NCBI RefSeq assembly: GCF_000020025.1
Contig: NC_010628.1
Coordinates: forward strand, 5,550,001 to 5,582,000
Length of the DNA stretch: 32,000 bases
Direction: 5' to 3'
Source of the DNA: Nostoc punctiforme PCC 73102
Lineage (GTDB): Bacteria; Cyanobacteriota; Cyanobacteriia; Cyanobacteriales; Nostocaceae
The notes beneath the pieces are model-generated. The model was not told the DNA's origin. It was given only the letters and a program-made list of their open reading frames with translations, and did no database searches. Every line of letters starts with the position of its first letter. The first letter of the stretch is position 1. The position numbers and the translations under genes were made by a program. Shown here piece after piece: positions 24,961 to 32,000 of this stretch.

Positions 24961-25881
24961 ATGGCAGCATTGCTCGGACGAGATTTATTAAGTCTAGCGG
25001 ATATCAGTTCTACTGAACTTCAAGAACTCCTGCAATTGGCAACTCAACTTAAATCACAACAGTTGAAGTTGCAGTGTAATAAGGTTTTAGGGTTGTTGTT
25101 CTCCAAAGCTTCAACTCGCACGCGGGTAAGTTTTACTGTGGCGATGTACCAATTGGGTGGACAGGTAATCGATCTGAACCCGAATGTCACTCAAGTTAGC
25201 CGTGGGGAACCTTTACAGGATACGGCGCGGGTGTTAGACCGATATCTGGATATTTTGGCAATTCGCACTTTTGCACAGCAGGATTTAGAAACTTTTGCTC
25301 ACTATGCAAAGATTCCAGTAATTAATGCGCTTACTGATGCAGAACATCCTTGTCAGGTATTAGCTGATTTATTGACGATTCAAGAAAGCTTTAACACCCT
25401 TGCTGGGTTAACTTTAACCTACGTAGGTGATGGGAATAATATGGCTAATTCTCTGATGTTGGGCTGTGCTTTGGTAGGGATGAACGTCAGAATTGCTACT
25501 CCTGACGGATATGAACCAGATTCTCAGATTGTAGAACAAGCAAGAGCGATCGCTAATAACAAAACTGAAGTCCTTCTCACTCACGATCCAGAATTAGCTG
25601 CTAAGGGTTCTACTGTACTTTATACTGATGTTTGGGCAAGTATGGGTCAAGAAACAGAAGCAGACAATCGGATGCCAATTTTCCAGCCTTACCAAATTTC
25701 GGAGCAACTATTGAGCCTTGCTGCTCCAGAGGCAATTGTTTTACACTGCTTACCAGCTCATCGTGGTGAAGAAATTACTGAGGCAGTTATTGAAGGTTCT
25801 CAATCACGAGTTTGGGAACAGGCAGAAAATCGCCTACACGCTCAAAAAGCTTTGCTTGCAAGTATCTTAGGGGCGGAATGA
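24961..25881 (+). CDS. argF: Ornithine carbamoyltransferase
   Basis: Motifs STRTRVSF, HPCQVLADL, DVWASMG and HCLPAHRGEE. Length 306 aa. Confidence 0.95.
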   Translation: MAALLGRDLLSLADISSTELQELLQLATQLKSQQLKLQCNKVLGLLFSKASTRTRVSFTVAMYQLGGQVIDLNPNVTQVSRGEPLQDTARVLDRYLDILAIRTFAQQDLETFAHYAKIPVINALTDAEHPCQVLADLLTIQESFNTLAGLTLTYVGDGNNMANSLMLGCALVGMNVRIATPDGYEPDSQIVEQARAIANNKTEVLLTHDPELAAKGSTVLYTDVWASMGQETEADNRMPIFQPYQISEQLLSLAAPEAIVLHCLPAHRGEEITEAVIEGSQSRVWEQAENRLHAQKALLASILGAE

Positions 25882-25900
25882 AAGGAGTTAGGAATTAGAA

Positions 25901-25928
25901 GTAGAGACGCGATTAATCGCGTTTGTAC
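25901..25928. repeat. Degenerate copy of the GTACAGACGCGATTAATCGCGTCTGTAC palindrome
   Basis: gtagagacgcgattaatcgcgtttgtac has two substitutions relative to 5506-5533. Like that copy, it is preceded by ggagtta-type heptamers and sits just 3' of a gene (argF). Confidence 0.7.
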
Positions 25929-26078
25929 AAGATTTAGGAGTCATAATAGCTAGTGTGCAATTGGCTCCTAACTACTTGCTGGTAAAAAATCCGAAATAAA
26001 TGGGTAAAAGAAAAGAGAATATTCTTGCTTTTGCCTTTCATAATTTTTACTTTTCTCTTGTTATGGGGAGTTTTTTGT

Positions 26079-26092
26079 AGTACTAATGTTCT
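26079..26092 (+). promoter_or_regulatory. Cyanobacterial-type LexA box upstream of lexA
   Basis: AGTACTAATGTTCT matches RGTACNNNDGTWCB at every position. It lies 32 nt upstream of the lexA ATG. Confidence 0.75.
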
Positions 26093-26123
26093 AGAGACAT
26101 TAATAATTACTTCCCGCAAATTT

Positions 26124-26729
26124 ATGGAACGTCTAACGGAAGCTCAACAAGAACTTTACGAATGGTTGGCAGAATACATCAGAACGCACCAGCATTCGCC
26201 TTCAATTAGGCAAATGATGCAAGCTATGAACTTGAAGTCACCAGCACCAATTCAAAGTCGTTTAGAACATTTACGCACCAAAGGATATATAGAATGGACT
26301 GAAGGACAAGCGCGAACGATTCGGATTTTGCGTCCTGTTAAGCAAGGTGTACCAATTTTGGGCACGATCGCTGCTGGTGGTTTAATAGAACCGTTTACTG
26401 ATGCTGTAGATCATTTAGACTTTTCTAATTTCGATTTACCTCCCCAAACCTATGCTTTGCGGGTAGCTGGCGATAGCATGATTGAAGATTTAATTACTGA
26501 TGGCGATGTGGTATTTCTGCGTCCAGTAGCAGAACCAAATCATTTAAAAAATGGTACTATTGTTGCGGCCAGAGTTGATGGATTTGGGACGACATTAAAA
26601 CGTTTTTATCGCCAAGGCGATCGCGTTACCCTCAAACCAGCAAATCCTAAGTACAATCCCATAGAAGTCAGTGCTATGCAAGTGCAGGTGCAAGGTTCAC
26701 TGATTGGTGTTTGGCGTGGTTACAACTGA
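26124..26729 (+). CDS. lexA: LexA repressor (S24 peptidase)
   Basis: N-terminal wHTH (LTEAQQELYEWLAEYIRTHQHSPSIRQMMQAM). Ala-Gly cleavage context TIAAGGLIEP. Catalytic Ser in GDSM and Lys in LKRF. Start moved to ATG 26124; the tracked 26025 extension is hydrophobic read-through of the promoter. Confidence 0.93.
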   Translation: MERLTEAQQELYEWLAEYIRTHQHSPSIRQMMQAMNLKSPAPIQSRLEHLRTKGYIEWTEGQARTIRILRPVKQGVPILGTIAAGGLIEPFTDAVDHLDFSNFDLPPQTYALRVAGDSMIEDLITDGDVVFLRPVAEPNHLKNGTIVAARVDGFGTTLKRFYRQGDRVTLKPANPKYNPIEVSAMQVQVQGSLIGVWRGYN

Positions 26730-26807
26730 GTAATGGAGAGTGGGAGAGAGATAATCAATGCCCAATGCCCATTAATTAGGGTTCGTTACCATCTTTGTGC
26801 TTAATAT

Positions 26808-28286
26808 ATGTACCTGACGAAAAATCCAGTGCAGCAACTGCCCACTTTCCGGTTGAAATTACCGTTTGCAAGGGAAAGTAAGGGCAGTTATTACACTCCG
26901 CAACCATTACCAGGATGCCCAAGAATGCCTCCGTCTCTGCAATTGCGGCAATATCAGCGCCAAGCGATCGCTAGCTGGTTTACCAACAATGGCAGAGGGA
27001 CGTTGAAAATGGCTACTGGTAGTGGTAAAACTATTACCGCATTAGCGATCGCTTGTGAATTATATCAGCAGATTAATTTACAAGTTCTGTTAGTGGTGTG
27101 TCCCTATCGTCATCTCGTCACCCAATGGGCGAGAGAATGTGAAAAATTTAATTTGCAACCCATTTTAGCTTTCGAGAATTTACGCACTTGGCAAAGTCAA
27201 CTTTCTACGCAAATTTATAATCTGCGTTCTGGTTCTCAACGATTTGTCACTGTAATTACTACGAACTCCACATTAATTGGTGATGGGTTTCAGTCTCAAC
27301 TCAAATATTTTCCCGCTAAAACTTTAATTATTGGGGACGAGGCGCATAATTTAGGCGCACCCAAGTTAGAAGAAAGTTTACCGCGCAGTGTGGGATTGAG
27401 ACTAGCTTTATCTGCCACACCGGAAAGGTATTTTGATGATTTTGGTACGCAATCTTTATTTGATTATTTTGGCCCAGTTCTCCAGCCAGAGTTTACTTTA
27501 AGGGATGCGATCGCTCAAGGTGCTTTGGTGCATTATCTGTATTATCCGGTGTTGGTGGAGTTAACTGAAGCCGAAAGTATTGCCTATTTAAAGTTAACTA
27601 AAAGAATTGGGCGATCGCTACTTTATCGGGATAAAGAAAATGGCGAATCGGGATTTGAAGACAATGAAGATTTAAAGCCGTTGTTGATGCAAAGAGCAAG
27701 ATTAATTGGTGCGGCAGAAAATAAATTAACTGCCTTGCGGGATTTAATGGTAACTCGCCGCGAAACTAGTCACACTCTTTTTTATTGTAGTGATGGTTCC
27801 CAAGATGCGGGACAACGTTCATCTTTACGGCAACTTAAAGCTGTTGCTAAAATTTTGGGGGTGGATTTAGGCTACAAGGTAAGCACCTATACAGCCCAAA
27901 CAACTTTACAAGAACGAGAAATTTTGCGGCATCAATTTGAAAGTGGAGAGTTGCAGGGTTTAGTTGCGATTCGTTGTTTAGATGAAGGTGTTGATATTCC
28001 AGCAATTCAAACTGCGGTGATTTTATCGAGTTCTGGTAATCCTCGCCAATTTATTCAGCGACGGGGGCGAGTGTTACGTCCTCATCCTGCTAAAGAACGC
28101 GCAACAATATTCGACATGATTGTTTTACCACCAGATTTAGATAGAGAAACTATCGAAGTTGAGCGTAATTTGTTGAAAAAGGAATTGCGTCGCTTTGTAG
28201 AGTTTGCTGATTTGGCTGATAACGCTGGTGAAGCAAGAATGAAGTTACTTGATTTACAAAAGCGATATGGTTTATTAGATATTTGA
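26808..28286 (+). CDS. SF2 DEAH-box helicase (type III restriction Res / XPB-like)
   Basis: LRQYQRQAI (Q-motif-like). Motif I KMATGSGKT. Motif II IIGDEAHNL. Motif III LSATPER. Motif VI QRRGRVLRP. An alternative start at ATG 26925 (MPPSLQLRQYQ) is possible. Confidence 0.85.
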   Translation: MYLTKNPVQQLPTFRLKLPFARESKGSYYTPQPLPGCPRMPPSLQLRQYQRQAIASWFTNNGRGTLKMATGSGKTITALAIACELYQQINLQVLLVVCPYRHLVTQWARECEKFNLQPILAFENLRTWQSQLSTQIYNLRSGSQRFVTVITTNSTLIGDGFQSQLKYFPAKTLIIGDEAHNLGAPKLEESLPRSVGLRLALSATPERYFDDFGTQSLFDYFGPVLQPEFTLRDAIAQGALVHYLYYPVLVELTEAESIAYLKLTKRIGRSLLYRDKENGESGFEDNEDLKPLLMQRARLIGAAENKLTALRDLMVTRRETSHTLFYCSDGSQDAGQRSSLRQLKAVAKILGVDLGYKVSTYTAQTTLQEREILRHQFESGELQGLVAIRCLDEGVDIPAIQTAVILSSSGNPRQFIQRRGRVLRPHPAKERATIFDMIVLPPDLDRETIEVERNLLKKELRRFVEFADLADNAGEARMKLLDLQKRYGLLDI

Positions 28287-28373
28287 TGATAAGCCAAATT
28301 GTATTTTTTATAAAAATTTTCGACTTTTGAAAAAAGATGCATTAGGTATGAAATAATAAGATTATGAGTTTGG

Positions 28374-28424
28374 TCATAATGGGATGTAAGTAGCTTTAAA
28401 AATTTGACTTACATCCCATTATGA
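28374..28424 (+). terminator. Perfect 18-bp stem-loop downstream of the helicase gene
   Basis: tcataatgggatgtaagt (28374-28391) and acttacatcccattatga (28407-28424) with a 15-nt loop. No trailing T-run, so a terminator role is uncertain; it could be an operator or RNA element. Confidence 0.45.
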
Positions 28425-28587
28425 TCTAGATTAATTACAATATATATTAACAGAAAATAATTAAAGAATAAAGTGTTTTTTCAAAGAAAATTAGGATTTT
28501 AAAGATAACGCTAATAGTGAGTTTACGGAGGCTATTCTAGCACTAGAGAAAGTTAAAATGTAGAAAAACTATATTTTAAAATCCGAT

Positions 28588-28761
28588 ATGTCACAAGAGG
28601 CAAATATCGACGATGTACAAGAGCCAATAACTAGCGCACCACCGGAAGTACGGCAAATTATTGAGCGGGTATGGAAGCTGGAAAAAGGCAGGCTAGATAA
28701 GAAGATTAACAGCCATGTAAATGACAATATTTTGGACATTATTAAGGAGGAGGTGCGATGA
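28588..28761 (+). CDS. Small acidic helical protein (57 aa), not in the supplied ORF track
   Basis: ATG 28588 gives MSQEANIDDVQEPITSAPPEVRQIIERVWKLEKGRLDKKINSHVNDNILDIIKEEVR*. Its TGA overlaps the ATG of the next gene (gcgATGAag). A strong SD for the next gene (aaggaggagg) lies in its 3' end. Confidence 0.45.
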   Translation: MSQEANIDDVQEPITSAPPEVRQIIERVWKLEKGRLDKKINSHVNDNILDIIKEEVR

Positions 28762-30830
28762 AGCTGACTTCAATCAAGCTCTGCAACTTTCGCTCCTTTT
28801 ATGGTACGACACCAGAAATGATTATCGCTGGGGGAGATGCTCAGAACACGACAATCATTCATGGGAATAATGGCTCTGGAAAAACTAGCTTGCTGAATGC
28901 CTTTACGTGGGTATTGTATGATAAATTTAGTGCGGCATTTGCATCGATAGAGCAGTTAGTGAATAAGCGTGCGATCGCAGAAACCCAAAAAGGTCAAGCT
29001 GTAGAATGTTGGGTAGAGATTGGCTGGGAACACGAAGGTAAACGCTATCGAGTTAAACGCGCCTGTCGGGGTTATAAAAACGAAGGTGATTTTGACGCTG
29101 GAAAAACTCAATTAACCATGTGGGTTGGTGGAGATGATGGCAAATGGAATATACCAATTCAGCAACCAGACGATATAATTAATCAAATTTTACCCGCAAC
29201 TTTACATCAATATTTTTTCTTTGACGGCGAACGAATTGAAGAAATCGTTCGTTCTGATAAAAAAGCTGAAATTGCTGAAGCTACAAAAATTTTCTTGGGT
29301 GTGGAAGTAATCAACCGTTCCATCAGACATTTAGGAGATGCTAAAAAAACTCTAGAAAATGATTTAAAAGCTATTGGTGATTCTGAAATTAAACAGTTAT
29401 TACGACAGCAAGAAAAAATAGAGCGAGAACGCGAACGCATTACCAAACGGCAAACTGAAATTAAAGAAGAGTTAGAATATCAACAAACTTTCAAAAAAGA
29501 GACAAGTAACCGTTTGCGAGAATTGAGTGCTGCTAAAGAATTGCAAGAAAGATGGCAGGATTTAGAATCGCAAAAAGCAGCAAATCAAGAAGAATATAAA
29601 AAAACCAAGGAAGCGCTGAAAAAAGTTATTTCTGCGCGGGGTTATACAGTTTTGCTTTCAGAAACTACATCGCAGTTTCGAGGGATTATCAATGATTTGA
29701 AGCAGCGCGGTGAATTAACATCAGGAATTTCGCGGGAATTTGTGAATGATTTACTCAATTCTCAACGCTGTATATGTGGTGCAGAATTACATGAGGGTAA
29801 TCATTCTCATACTCATGTGAGTACTTGGTTAAATAAAGCCGGTTCTTCGGCGGTAGAAGAAACTGCAATTCGGATGCTAGCACAAGTAGATGAAATTGAT
29901 AAGCAAGCGATAGGATTTTGGGAAGAAGTTGATAGAGAACAAACTAGGATTAATCAATTAAGGCAAAGTATATCTCAAATTGAAGGCGATTTAGACAATA
30001 TTCAAGAACGGTTGCGAAAAGATGCTAATGAAGAAATTAGCAGTTTGCAAAAACGATTAGATGAAATTGAAAGTAAAATTGATGAATTAAATCGAGAACA
30101 GGGTGCAAATCAGCAGCAAATTGCTCAACTCACAACTGAAATTGAAGGTTTAAACAAACAAATCGCCAAACAAAAGCTGAATGAAGACAAGCAAACTTTA
30201 GCACAGCGACGAATTAACGCCACTCAAGATGCAATCGAACGGTTAACGGAAGTTAGAAATCGTCAAGAACAACAATTTCGTCTGCAACTAGAAAAGCGAG
30301 TGCAGGAGATATTCACAGAGATTTCTGTTACTCCATACATTCCTAAAATTAGTGATAAATATGAACTGACATTAGTAGAAAATACTACAGGTGTGGAAGC
30401 ACCAGTTGCAGCATCTACTGGGGAAAATCAGATTCTCAGCTTATCCTTTATTGCCAGCATCATTGACAAAGTGCGGGAATGGAGTGAGAAGCGAAAAATG
30501 ATGATGATTCCCGATAGTAGTACTTTTCCAATTGTGATGGATTCGCCGTTTGGTAGTTTAGATGAGAATTCGCGGCGACATATAGCAAAGACAATTCCCC
30601 AATTAGCGAATCAGTTGATAGTTTTAGTTACTAAGACTCAGTGGCGCGGTGAAGTGGAAGCAGAAATAACAGACAGAATTGGGAGAGAATATGTGCTTAC
30701 GTATTATTCTTCTAAACCGGATTGTGAACAAGATTATATTGAGTTGAGTGGAGAAAGATATCCTTTGGTGAAACAAAGTCCGAATGAGTTTGAGTATACA
30801 GAAATTATGGAAGTTGAACGAGATAGGTAA
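28758..30830 (+). CDS. DndD/Rad50-like ABC-type ATPase with coiled coils (690 aa)
   Basis: Walker A HGNNGSGKTSLLNAF. FFFDGERIEE. Long heptad regions (aa ~195-295 and ~385-515). Signature-like ASTGENQILSLSF. Walker B/D-loop FPIVMDSPFGSLD. Central CxC...HxxxHxHxH cluster at aa 338-353. Confidence 0.8.
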   Translation: MKLTSIKLCNFRSFYGTTPEMIIAGGDAQNTTIIHGNNGSGKTSLLNAFTWVLYDKFSAAFASIEQLVNKRAIAETQKGQAVECWVEIGWEHEGKRYRVKRACRGYKNEGDFDAGKTQLTMWVGGDDGKWNIPIQQPDDIINQILPATLHQYFFFDGERIEEIVRSDKKAEIAEATKIFLGVEVINRSIRHLGDAKKTLENDLKAIGDSEIKQLLRQQEKIERERERITKRQTEIKEELEYQQTFKKETSNRLRELSAAKELQERWQDLESQKAANQEEYKKTKEALKKVISARGYTVLLSETTSQFRGIINDLKQRGELTSGISREFVNDLLNSQRCICGAELHEGNHSHTHVSTWLNKAGSSAVEETAIRMLAQVDEIDKQAIGFWEEVDREQTRINQLRQSISQIEGDLDNIQERLRKDANEEISSLQKRLDEIESKIDELNREQGANQQQIAQLTTEIEGLNKQIAKQKLNEDKQTLAQRRINATQDAIERLTEVRNRQEQQFRLQLEKRVQEIFTEISVTPYIPKISDKYELTLVENTTGVEAPVAASTGENQILSLSFIASIIDKVREWSEKRKMMMIPDSSTFPIVMDSPFGSLDENSRRHIAKTIPQLANQLIVLVTKTQWRGEVEAEITDRIGREYVLTYYSSKPDCEQDYIELSGERYPLVKQSPNEFEYTEIMEVERDR

Positions 30831-30926
30831 TTACAGCAGTTTTGATGTCTTTGACCCACATCTGTCATAAGGAAGTAGGCGAAAATATTTTTACAGGAAT
30901 GATACAAAATACTTCTCAAATTCTTA

Positions 30927-30955
30927 TTCTCCGTGTTCTCTGTGCCTCTGTGGTT
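30927..30955. repeat. GC-rich dispersed repeat copy (left, inverted)
   Basis: ttctccgtgttctctgtgcctctgtggtt is similar to the reverse complement of 31332-31362. A related sequence occurs at 1540-1557. Confidence 0.6.
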
Positions 30956-31031
30956 TTATTTTCCGTTACCTGTACATAAATCTGATTTTAGTTACAGTTG
31001 AGAAAATTGGCTTTTGAAAAGGAATAAGATT

Positions 31032-31370
31032 ATGGTTGCGAGTCCAGACAGAAACTATATGTCCCCCCAGGAATATCTGGAATGGGAAGAACGCCAAGAA
31101 ATTAAATATGAATATATTGATGGTGAAGTTTTCGCCATGACTGGGGAGACTTTGCAAGAATACGTCCTCATCGATGCTGAAAAAATTGGTTTAGATTGTT
31201 TTCGGTTAAATGATAGAGGACTTTGGGAGTTACATCCTTATGAGGAAGGGGATGAGGTTCATTTAACTAGTGCTGATTTTCACTTTCCTATTTCTTTGGT
31301 TTATGAGGATGTTCAGTTTGTAGGAAAAACGAACCGCAGAGGCGCAGAGGACGCGGAGAGAAGAGAGTAA
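31032..31370 (+). pseudogene. Uma2 (DUF820) family nuclease with internal in-frame deletion
   Basis: The N-terminal YMSPQEYLEWEERQEIKYEYIDGEVFAMTG joins directly (near 31143-31151) to the C-terminal ETLQEYVLIDAEK...FHFPISLVYEDV. The ~85-95 aa core with the PD-(D/E)xK residues seen in the neighbouring 183-aa paralog is missing. The 3' tail (RRGAEDAERRE*) is read from a dispersed repeat. Confidence 0.65.
31332..31362. repeat. GC-rich dispersed repeat copy (right)
   Basis: aaccgcagaggcgcagaggacgcggagagaa, the inverted partner of 30927-30955. Confidence 0.6.
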
Positions 31371-31406
31371 AATTGAGATTATTACTAACTCATTAAAAGA
31401 TATTTT

Positions 31407-31958
31407 ATGAGTATTAAAACTGAAGCGACTATTGAAGATTTGTACCAATTACCAGACAATTGTAAAGCAGAGATTGTCAATGGGAAATTGGTGCTGATGT
31501 CTCCAACTGGATTTTTACCAGGACGTGCAGGTGGTGAAATTTATGCAAGTCTACGGGATTATAAACGATTGACAAAAAGTGGTTATGCTTTACCTGATAA
31601 TGTTGGTTTCATTGTCAATCTCCCTCATCATCGTTCTTTAAGTCCTGATGCGGCATTTTATACCGGCAAACCTACAGGTGGGAAGTTCCTTAATGGTGCG
31701 CCTGTGTTTGCTGCTGAGGTGAGAAGTGAAAATGATTATGGTGAGACAGCAGAGAAAGATATGGCTAGCAAACGCCGTGATTATTTTGCAGCTGGTACTT
31801 TGGTCGTTTGGGATGTGGATGTACTCAAAGAGGAAGTTATCAGAGTATACCGCGCTAGTAATCCCGAAGAAGCACAAGTGTATCGCCGTGGTGAGGTAGT
31901 GGAAGCTGAACCTGCGTTACCAGGATGGACTATGTTGGTGGATAATTTGTTTGTTTAG
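31407..31958 (+). CDS. Uma2 (DUF820) family putative endonuclease, full length (183 aa)
   Basis: Family-typical layout: KAEIVNGKLVLMSPTG, SPDAAF, PVFAAEVRS (PD...E.R/K core) and the C-terminal DYFAAGTLVVWDVD. Confidence 0.85.
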   Translation: MSIKTEATIEDLYQLPDNCKAEIVNGKLVLMSPTGFLPGRAGGEIYASLRDYKRLTKSGYALPDNVGFIVNLPHHRSLSPDAAFYTGKPTGGKFLNGAPVFAAEVRSENDYGETAEKDMASKRRDYFAAGTLVVWDVDVLKEEVIRVYRASNPEEAQVYRRGEVVEAEPALPGWTMLVDNLFV

Positions 31959-32000
31959 TGTTTGTTTAGCGATCGCCCACATACTATCATTAAATCATAC

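Follow-up and report, generated by a model that had tools for sequence, protein, structure and literature searches.

A helicase gene, a 57-codon gene and an ATPase gene behind lexA in Nostoc punctiforme: the probable pbeABC part of a Dnd-Pbe phosphorothioate defence locus

Introduction

What do a helicase gene, a 57-codon gene and a gene for a coiled-coil ATPase do together, directly behind lexA, on the chromosome of Nostoc punctiforme PCC 73102? The three open reading frames (ORFs), all on the plus strand at 26808-28286 (492 amino acids, aa), 28588-28761 (57 aa) and 28758-30830 (690 aa), form a cassette in a stretch of 32,000 nucleotides (nt), hereafter the window (assembly GCF_000020025.1, contig NC_010628.1, positions 5,550,001-5,582,000, forward strand). 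A first-pass annotation made from the sequence alone took them for a candidate defence or SOS-linked DNA-processing system that it could not assign to any named one. The ORFs are present as it claimed, with all the motifs it quoted at the genes it gave. A name can nevertheless be found, since all three genes match Pbe families, PbeA and PbeC by model score and PbeB by profile and position. The helicase gene, the 57-codon gene and the ATPase gene are pbeA, pbeB and pbeC of the four-gene PbeABCD DNA phosphorothioate (PT) defence system, an assignment that supports the defence reading. What was an unassigned cassette is now part of a recognised system whose missing partners lie just past the end of the window.

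Xiong et al. (2019; PMC6459918) defined PbeABCD as four genes beside dndCDEA, whose products are a PLD-helicase, a protein of 66 aa, an SMC-like ATPase and a protein of 152 aa. The system protects about 10^4-fold against a haloarchaeal virus in a PT-dependent manner, DNA cleavage was not detected, and full protection needs all four genes, with low-level resistance retained upon deletion of pbeA (PMC6459918). PbeA has further been described as an HKD nuclease plus superfamily 2 (SF2) helicase, PbeB as small and mostly disordered, PbeC as a CxC zinc-hook ABC ATPase and PbeD as a DndE cognate (PMC10853773). Literature searches yielded nothing specific on alr4909 to alr4914, nor on Pbe in cyanobacteria. 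The cassette is largely ordinary, and the pairing of Pbe with Dnd is already covered by NCBIfam and PADLOC models; what sets the present form apart is that it is nuclease-less and lineage-specific. Here we establish family assignments, locus architecture, loss of the nuclease domain and the pattern of conservation. We put at about three in four the probability that these genes are the pbeA-pbeB-pbeC portion of a PT defence locus of Dnd-Pbe type on the chromosome.

Assignment of the three genes

The pbeA product is an XPB-like SF2 helicase/translocase with Pfam domains ResIII and Helicase_C and the motifs GSGKT (aa 71-75), DEAH (177-180), SATP (202-205) and QRRGRVLR (417-424). It scores 668.7 bits against the NCBIfam equivalog-domain model TIGR04095 ("DNA phosphorothioation system restriction enzyme"; cutoff 600) and matches the PADLOC PbeA model at 1.6e-163, with only profile positions 243-681 of 682 covered.

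PbeC (28758..30830, plus strand) is a coiled-coil ABC ATPase with the CxC zinc hook that marks PbeC proteins, and it matches PADLOC model PDLC02753 over its full length with 1197.9 bits. Its plus-strand motifs are Walker A (GNNGSGKT, 28863-28886, aa 36-43), FFFDGE (aa 153-158), the CIC hook (29769-29777, aa 338-340), the signature motif STGENQ (30414-30431, aa 553-558) and Walker B with D-loop (30531-30563, with MDSPFGSLD at about aa 594-602). The first-pass label "DndD/SMC-like" was right at the level of the superfamily, which canonical DndBCDE's DndD shares, but the protein is PbeC: DndD occurs as a paralogue in the same locus and lacks the hook, whereas CxC is found in five PbeC proteins, including those of Pseudanabaena, Natrinema, Rhizobium and a metagenomic sister locus.

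Other identities for the ATPase were tried and rejected. As DndD it reaches only 162 bits against TIGR03185 (cutoff 245.85), with the CxC hook present. The best Rad50 model gives 53.6 bits (cutoff 700) and SbcC 47 (cutoff 478), and no SbcD/Mre11 gene was found in the window or in the locus on the contiguous public contig L001 described below. A DndFGH identity was rejected on model scores.

Pbe loci have a small ORF of about 50-66 aa immediately 5' of pbeC and overlapping it, and pbeB (28588..28761, plus strand) holds exactly this place. The gene is translationally coupled to pbeC, as the first-pass annotation had it: its stop overlaps the pbeC start as ATGA, an overlap that recurs in 79/79 related loci. 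Since all 80 distinct nucleotide versions of pbeB have 57 intact codons, and differences are concentrated in third codon positions (mean pairwise differences of 3.8, 3.6 and 13.6 at positions 1, 2 and 3, an excess of about 3.7-fold), the micro-ORF is, by its pattern of substitution, a real gene under purifying selection. The protein is 49% identical to the product of a 57-aa ORF that holds the equivalent place on a Pseudanabaena plasmid. Pairwise BLASTP against the small ORF of Natrinema gave E = 0.1, not significant alone, and was replaced by a profile-and-position test in which six distant pbe loci, cut into 1531 stop-to-stop segments, were searched with a cyanobacterial PbeB profile. The top four matches were the pbeC-abutting ORFs of Natrinema (7e-6), Halorhabdus (0.0028), L. 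plantarum and Pontibrevibacter. By position and profile, then, the micro-ORF is PbeB, a homologue of the small ORFs found in pbe loci of archaea and bacteria.

The partners beyond the window

Over 13243 nt contig L001 matches the window with 100% identity, and it reaches 8.8 kb beyond base 32000 (coordinate offset 18757). The pbeD gene stands at L001 13317-13775, which is outside the window at the equivalent of 32074-32532. It encodes 152 aa of family TIGR04062 / PF27807, also called dnd_assoc_4, scoring 201 bits against the TIGR04062 cutoff of 74 and so qualifying as the PbeD of a Pbe system. The protein aligns with the one encoded immediately after PbeC in Rhizobium and Natrinema.

Further along L001 follow a 343-aa DGQHR protein, a 316-aa protein, a divergent 532-aa DGQHR protein equivalent to DndB, DndC (731 bits), DndD (742 bits, L001 20013-21998) and the start of the dndE gene. 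The 316-aa protein has no significant family match, its HEPN match being sub-threshold (E = 0.009). The PT modification genes expected beside Pbe, dndCDE with or without dndA, are thus linked on DNA contiguous with the window. It had been remarked that no sulfur-transfer genes accompany the cassette, which is correct inside the window, but only because the window ends before the dnd genes: dndC, dndD and dndE are encountered about 5.6 to 10 kb past pbeC. The full order is lexA, pbeA (helicase only), spacer, pbeB-pbeC, two Uma2 genes, pbeD, the DGQHR gene and the 316-aa gene, dndB (minus strand), dndC, dndD and dndE.

PbeA without a nuclease domain

A Pfam scan of PbeA did not find a PLDc_2 domain. 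The gene (26808..28286, plus strand) has a conserved N-terminal leader of 38 aa in the place of the PLD/HKD domain, which is itself typical of PbeA proteins and not universal among them. When cluster representatives were searched exhaustively, 131 of the 150 best family representatives proved to carry at least 160 additional aa at the N-terminus, PLDc_2 being detectable in several of these, and 11/150 were full-length helicase-only proteins. As PbeA is also helicase-only in Natrinema, Halorhabdus, L. plantarum and Pseudanabaena (the last with 70% identity), loss of the nuclease is a recurrent minority state within the family and not peculiar to this locus. The nearest non-Nostocales relative, P0122 (60% identity, 708 aa), belongs to an HKD-bearing sister locus in which only 8 nt separate pbeA from pbeB.

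The closest solved structures are archaeal XPB/Rad25 (PDB 2fwr and 6p66; XPBII 5tnu), with E of about 6e-24 over residues 32-438. The NCBIfam XPB model gives 65 bits for PbeA against a cutoff of 610. The helicase core is thus akin to that of archaeal XPB/Rad25, but the genomic context differs, with no Bax1 in the locus; XPB also works with a nuclease supplied in trans, namely Bax1.

The pbeA ORF starts 78 nt past lexA. Because the ATG at 26808 and the leader are kept in 79 loci, with in-frame indels, and M40 is not, the upstream ATG giving 492 aa is, judging by conservation, the true start. Some gene callers on public contigs begin at the internal Met and give 453 aa, which affects window positions 26808-26924. 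In Nostoc sp. DedQUE08 an insertion of about 5.2 kb (L032 3856-9017) splits pbeA at about aa 331-342.

Comparison with other Pbe loci

PbeABCD of Halalkalicoccus jeotgali A29, the CxC ABC-ATPase/DndE-anchored system, shares with the Nostoc locus a helicase, a small ORF overlapping the ATPase start, a CxC ATPase and a protein of about 152 aa, encoded in the same order; in both, the genes adjoin dndCDE, and the family models are passed above their cutoffs. Unlike that system, the Nostoc locus encodes a PbeA that has no PLD/HKD domain, carries a conserved palindrome in a spacer of 301 nt that splits pbeA from pbeBC, and has Uma2 genes that part pbeD from pbeC. PbeB also is conserved and not fast-evolving within Nostocales, and the locus is inherited vertically beside lexA instead of being patchily distributed.

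A closer counterpart is found on plasmid pPg_01 of Pseudanabaena galeata (NZ_CP112875.1). There too PbeA is helicase-only (476 aa), a long hairpin-bearing gap precedes a 57-aa PbeB, PbeC has 691 aa (51% identity), inserts stand between pbeC and pbeD, and PbeD has 152 aa. It differs in its setting, a defence island on a plasmid with a type I-D CRISPR locus as neighbour and without lexA alongside; within about 6 kb no dnd genes are seen. The four-gene order is shared by plasmids of Natrinema, Halorhabdus, Haloprofundus, Pontibrevibacter and L. plantarum, and on a Rhizobium plasmid the same genes occur but the one for the helicase comes after pbeD. In bacterial pbe loci with PGAP names the gene after PbeC is called "DNA phosphorothioation-associated protein 4".

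Conservation in Nostocales

The first-pass annotation proposed that linkage of the helicase and ATPase genes be checked in other genomes, and both are linked in every locus examined. Across 80 genome loci the order argF-lexA-pbeA-pbeB-pbeC is invariant in Nostocales, with lexA immediately 5' of pbeA in 73/73 loci. The 120 best PbeA homologues, from Nostoc, Anabaena, Calothrix, Tolypothrix, Scytonema, Nodularia and other genera, have 489-515 aa and are 86-98% identical. Intact genes were counted in 72/74 loci for pbeA, 79/79 for pbeB and 77/78 for pbeC. Identity correlates with that of argF for both PbeA (rho 0.76) and PbeC (rho 0.61). For a defence module, Pbe of Nostocales is unusually stable, being vertical, conserved at housekeeping level and always beside lexA.

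PbeD behaves differently. Its mean identity is 67.5% (range 56-89%) versus 93.5% for PbeC, and it is uncorrelated with that of argF (rho 0.07) and correlated with that of DndC (rho 0.52), as if pbeD travelled with the modification module like a specificity determinant. The identities of PbeD fall into discrete classes (about 58-60, 65-69, 75 and 87-89%) that are uncoupled from species divergence and covary with DndC.

Within 10 kb of pbeABC, pbeD is found in 58/64 loci and dndC in 56/64. A Pbe-type partner beside dnd genes is accordingly the rule in Nostocales, contrary to a published statement that PT restriction components are absent from cyanobacteria (PMC8569181), whose text does not mention Pbe. 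The same study describes for cyanobacteria a 'DndD clade 1' in agreement with the species tree. This clade may be vertically inherited PbeC and not DndD, since the BLASTP criteria used (PMC8569181) would probably also collect PbeC.

Proposed mechanism and points against it

By analogy with the characterised system, Nostoc Pbe would depend on PT, act against viruses and form a complex. Host DNA would be PT-marked by DndCDE with a cysteine desulfurase encoded elsewhere, as homology to the Halalkalicoccus system suggests. The zinc-hook ABC ATPase PbeC and its fast-evolving partner PbeD would scan DNA, with discrimination guided by PT, and PbeA would serve as an XPB-like SF2 translocase, with PbeB as a small partner produced in a fixed ratio with PbeC. 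The outcome would be a block of incoming unmodified DNA. As PbeA has no PLD/HKD nuclease, this variant may obstruct replication in an ATP-driven way without cutting DNA, as reported for the archaeal system, or may rely on a nuclease contributed in trans by the exchangeable cassette that sits between pbeD and dndB. A nuclease-less PbeA fits the virus inhibition reported without DNA cleavage (PMC6459918), as opposed to the view of HKD as the effector (PMC10853773).

Several points weigh against PT defence. The HKD nuclease that PbeA is missing is considered the effector of such systems (PMC10853773). The pbeD gene is displaced 1.24 kb from pbeC, and hhalign gave PbeD and DndE a probability of only 0.9%, with a very shallow DndE alignment, so that the published relationship is not confirmed. 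No dndA was found in the retrieved DNA stretch. Intact pbeABC occurs with neither pbeD nor dnd genes within 10 kb in 6/64 loci, which may point to some role independent of PT, or to partners that are encoded elsewhere. Housekeeping-level conservation and strictly vertical inheritance are atypical for defence genes, and neither PT chemistry nor a phage phenotype is known for N. punctiforme. The questions this raises may be testable in a genetically tractable relative, because the same locus is present in Anabaena FACHB-709, presumably a close relative of the model strain PCC 7120.

We consider a repair function, Uma2 effectors and an inactive relic in turn below, and hold each to be less likely than PT defence.

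The neighbourhood of lexA and a possible repair function

The position after lexA had equally suggested a damage-inducible repair function. In such a reading the cassette would be a domesticated, LexA-controlled DNA-damage/repair machine, pbeA being co-transcribed with lexA and the helicase and Rad50-like ATPase processing damaged chromosomal DNA and not foreign DNA. The adjacency is real and, as described above, without exception, and the core-gene-like tracking of argF, the lost nuclease domain, the loci without nearby dnd genes, the XPB-like helicase core and the Rad50-like ATPase head all agree with a repair role.

The lexA gene itself (26125..26729, plus strand) encodes 201 aa (TIGR00498, 203 bits; Pfam LexA_DNA_bind and Peptidase_S24). 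A LexA box, AGTACTAATGTTCT, is found at 26079..26092 (plus strand), 32 nt 5' of the lexA ATG; it agrees with RGTACNNNDGTWCB at zero mismatches, is identical to the alr4908 box listed in PMC3091678 and is the autoregulatory operator of lexA. Membership of the cyanobacterial LexA regulon would call for a box in a gene's own upstream region, and neither pbeA nor pbeB has one, the only box of the region being that before lexA. Searching with one mismatch returned nothing before either gene, and its total of 11 sites against 7.3 expected is not above chance. As the sole box stands before lexA, the SOS link is one of position.

It could still be transmitted by a shared transcript. The gap between lexA and pbeA (26730..26807) has no conserved promoter, no stable hairpin (fold z-score -0.5) and no terminator-like site, and a strong conserved hairpin follows pbeA, so lexA possibly shares its transcript with pbeA; a published operon prediction has alr4908 (lexA) as a single-gene unit. 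The gap varies from 64 to 292 nt across genomes and contains variable repeat arrays (alignment of 23 loci). In the window these are STRR-type heptamers, GGGGA[A/C]T-like and CCAATGA-like, whose copy number differs by genome.

Against repair also stand the Rad50 and SbcC scores far under their cutoffs, the missing Mre11/SbcD partner, the match of every component to Pbe families with dnd genes adjoining, and the same nuclease-less variant on the Pseudanabaena plasmid, away from lexA. We therefore regard a repair machine as improbable.

Uma2 genes and the pbeC-pbeD slot

Two Uma2-family genes had been placed directly downstream of the cassette. There are indeed two Uma2 ORFs, but the first, Uma2 'A' (31014..31370, plus strand), is a remnant in which an internal deletion removes the catalytic core and leaves Pfam Uma2 matches on two separate stretches. 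The second, Uma2 'B' (31407..31958, plus strand), is intact with 183 aa (Pfam Uma2, 2.9e-26) and is the second occupant of a hypervariable slot between pbeC and pbeD that may hold zero, one or two Uma2 genes.

Uma2 proteins, with their PD-(D/E)xK fold, might have replaced the lost HKD domain as effector nuclease. In many Nostoc loci an intact 189-aa Uma2 'A' orthologue begins about 14 nt past the pbeC stop, about half of these loci carry a second Uma2 gene, and on the Pseudanabaena plasmid a Uma2 fragment overlaps the pbeC stop. Yet about a dozen loci, the window included, have a Uma2 'A' that is broken up or partly lost by deletion next to a still intact pbeABC; the gene is absent from loci such as L021, L049 and L072, where pbeD directly follows pbeC; and an MNT/HEPN pair fills the slot in sister loci. 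Moreover, Uma2 genes are very numerous in cyanobacterial genomes. The chance that they are the effectors is slim.

Weakest of all is the notion of an inactive relic crippled by loss of the nuclease domain: the missing HKD domain, the operon split by a spacer and the displaced pbeD would agree with it, but it is rendered very improbable by strong purifying selection across the order, seen in the amino acid identities and intact ORFs given above, by the retention of all ATPase and helicase motifs, and by the recurrence of helicase-only PbeA in the other genera named above.

The spacer between pbeA and pbeBC

The first-pass annotation had noted an AT-rich spacer of 470 nt after the helicase gene. 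It is AT-rich (GC 0.24), but the non-coding part (28287..28587) measures 301 nt, 470 nt being the distance from helicase to ATPase with the micro-ORF included. Across 74 loci the spacer has 158-625 nt and a GC of 0.20-0.40.

It contains a palindrome (28374..28424, inverted repeat I3) with perfect 18-nt arms at 28374-28391 and 28407-28424 around a 15-nt loop. The predicted fold has -31.5 kcal/mol and a z-score of -6.35. The palindrome was detected in 62/71 distinct spacers, with 92% of positions paired and compensatory changes in 10/18 pairs, a covariation matched by 0/500 shuffles. G-U and A-C mismatches are about equal (41 vs 37); there is therefore no strand bias, and the element may act as RNA or as DNA. 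No further copies of the half-site were found in the window or in the 22-kb extended locus, the dndB-dndC promoter region included, which gives no support to a shared operator. The palindrome matches no known Rfam family, and an Rfam scan of 25800-32000 returned two chance matches to microRNA models only, far under their gathering scores.

The palindrome would be a terminator or boundary element of a lexA-pbeA unit. A -10-like TAAAAT (28554..28559, plus strand), 28 nt ahead of the pbeB ATG and within a conserved block of the cross-genus spacer alignment, is a putative promoter element of pbeBC. The locus would then be transcribed in two parts: lexA-pbeA as far as the palindrome, and pbeB-pbeC after it. 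Scans for consensus promoters and terminators were used descriptively only, because their counts were no higher than the shuffled expectation.

The loop of the palindrome is found in either orientation depending on the genome, the TTAAAAATTT type 38 times and the ATTTTTA type 16 times, which suggests that inversion or template switching has taken place there repeatedly.

Exchangeable slots

A bolder version of the PT-defence reading, which we hold to be rather unlikely, is that in Nostocales an ancestral Pbe system lost its nuclease and became a fixed core-genome 'engine', with pbeA transcribed together with lexA and pbeBC under a promoter of their own. The specificity alleles (pbeD and dnd) and the effector nucleases (HNH, GIY-YIG-like, AIPR and DGQHR pairs) would be exchanged in two hypervariable slots. 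If true, this would be a modular defence locus coupled to a DNA-damage regulator, and it would contradict the published view of a cyanobacterial Dnd without restriction partner.

The gap of about 660 nt between dndC and dndD (L001 19350-20012) has no ORF of at least 90 aa; the gap in Anabaena holds called genes of 80 and 84 aa. Between pbeD and dndB (L001 13810-15811, window-equivalent 32567-34568) lies a hot spot with at least seven alternative cassettes across Nostocales. An HNH_2 nuclease occupies it in 24 loci and in Anabaena bears a ScoMcrA-type sulfur-binding domain; in 18 loci the occupant is a 396-aa DndB-family protein. Other cassettes consist of a DndB-like protein with a weak GIY-YIG match, AIPR, a DndB-like protein with HNH, or a methyltransferase with a GHKL ATPase, and that of N. 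punctiforme consists of the 343-aa DGQHR protein and the 316-aa protein.

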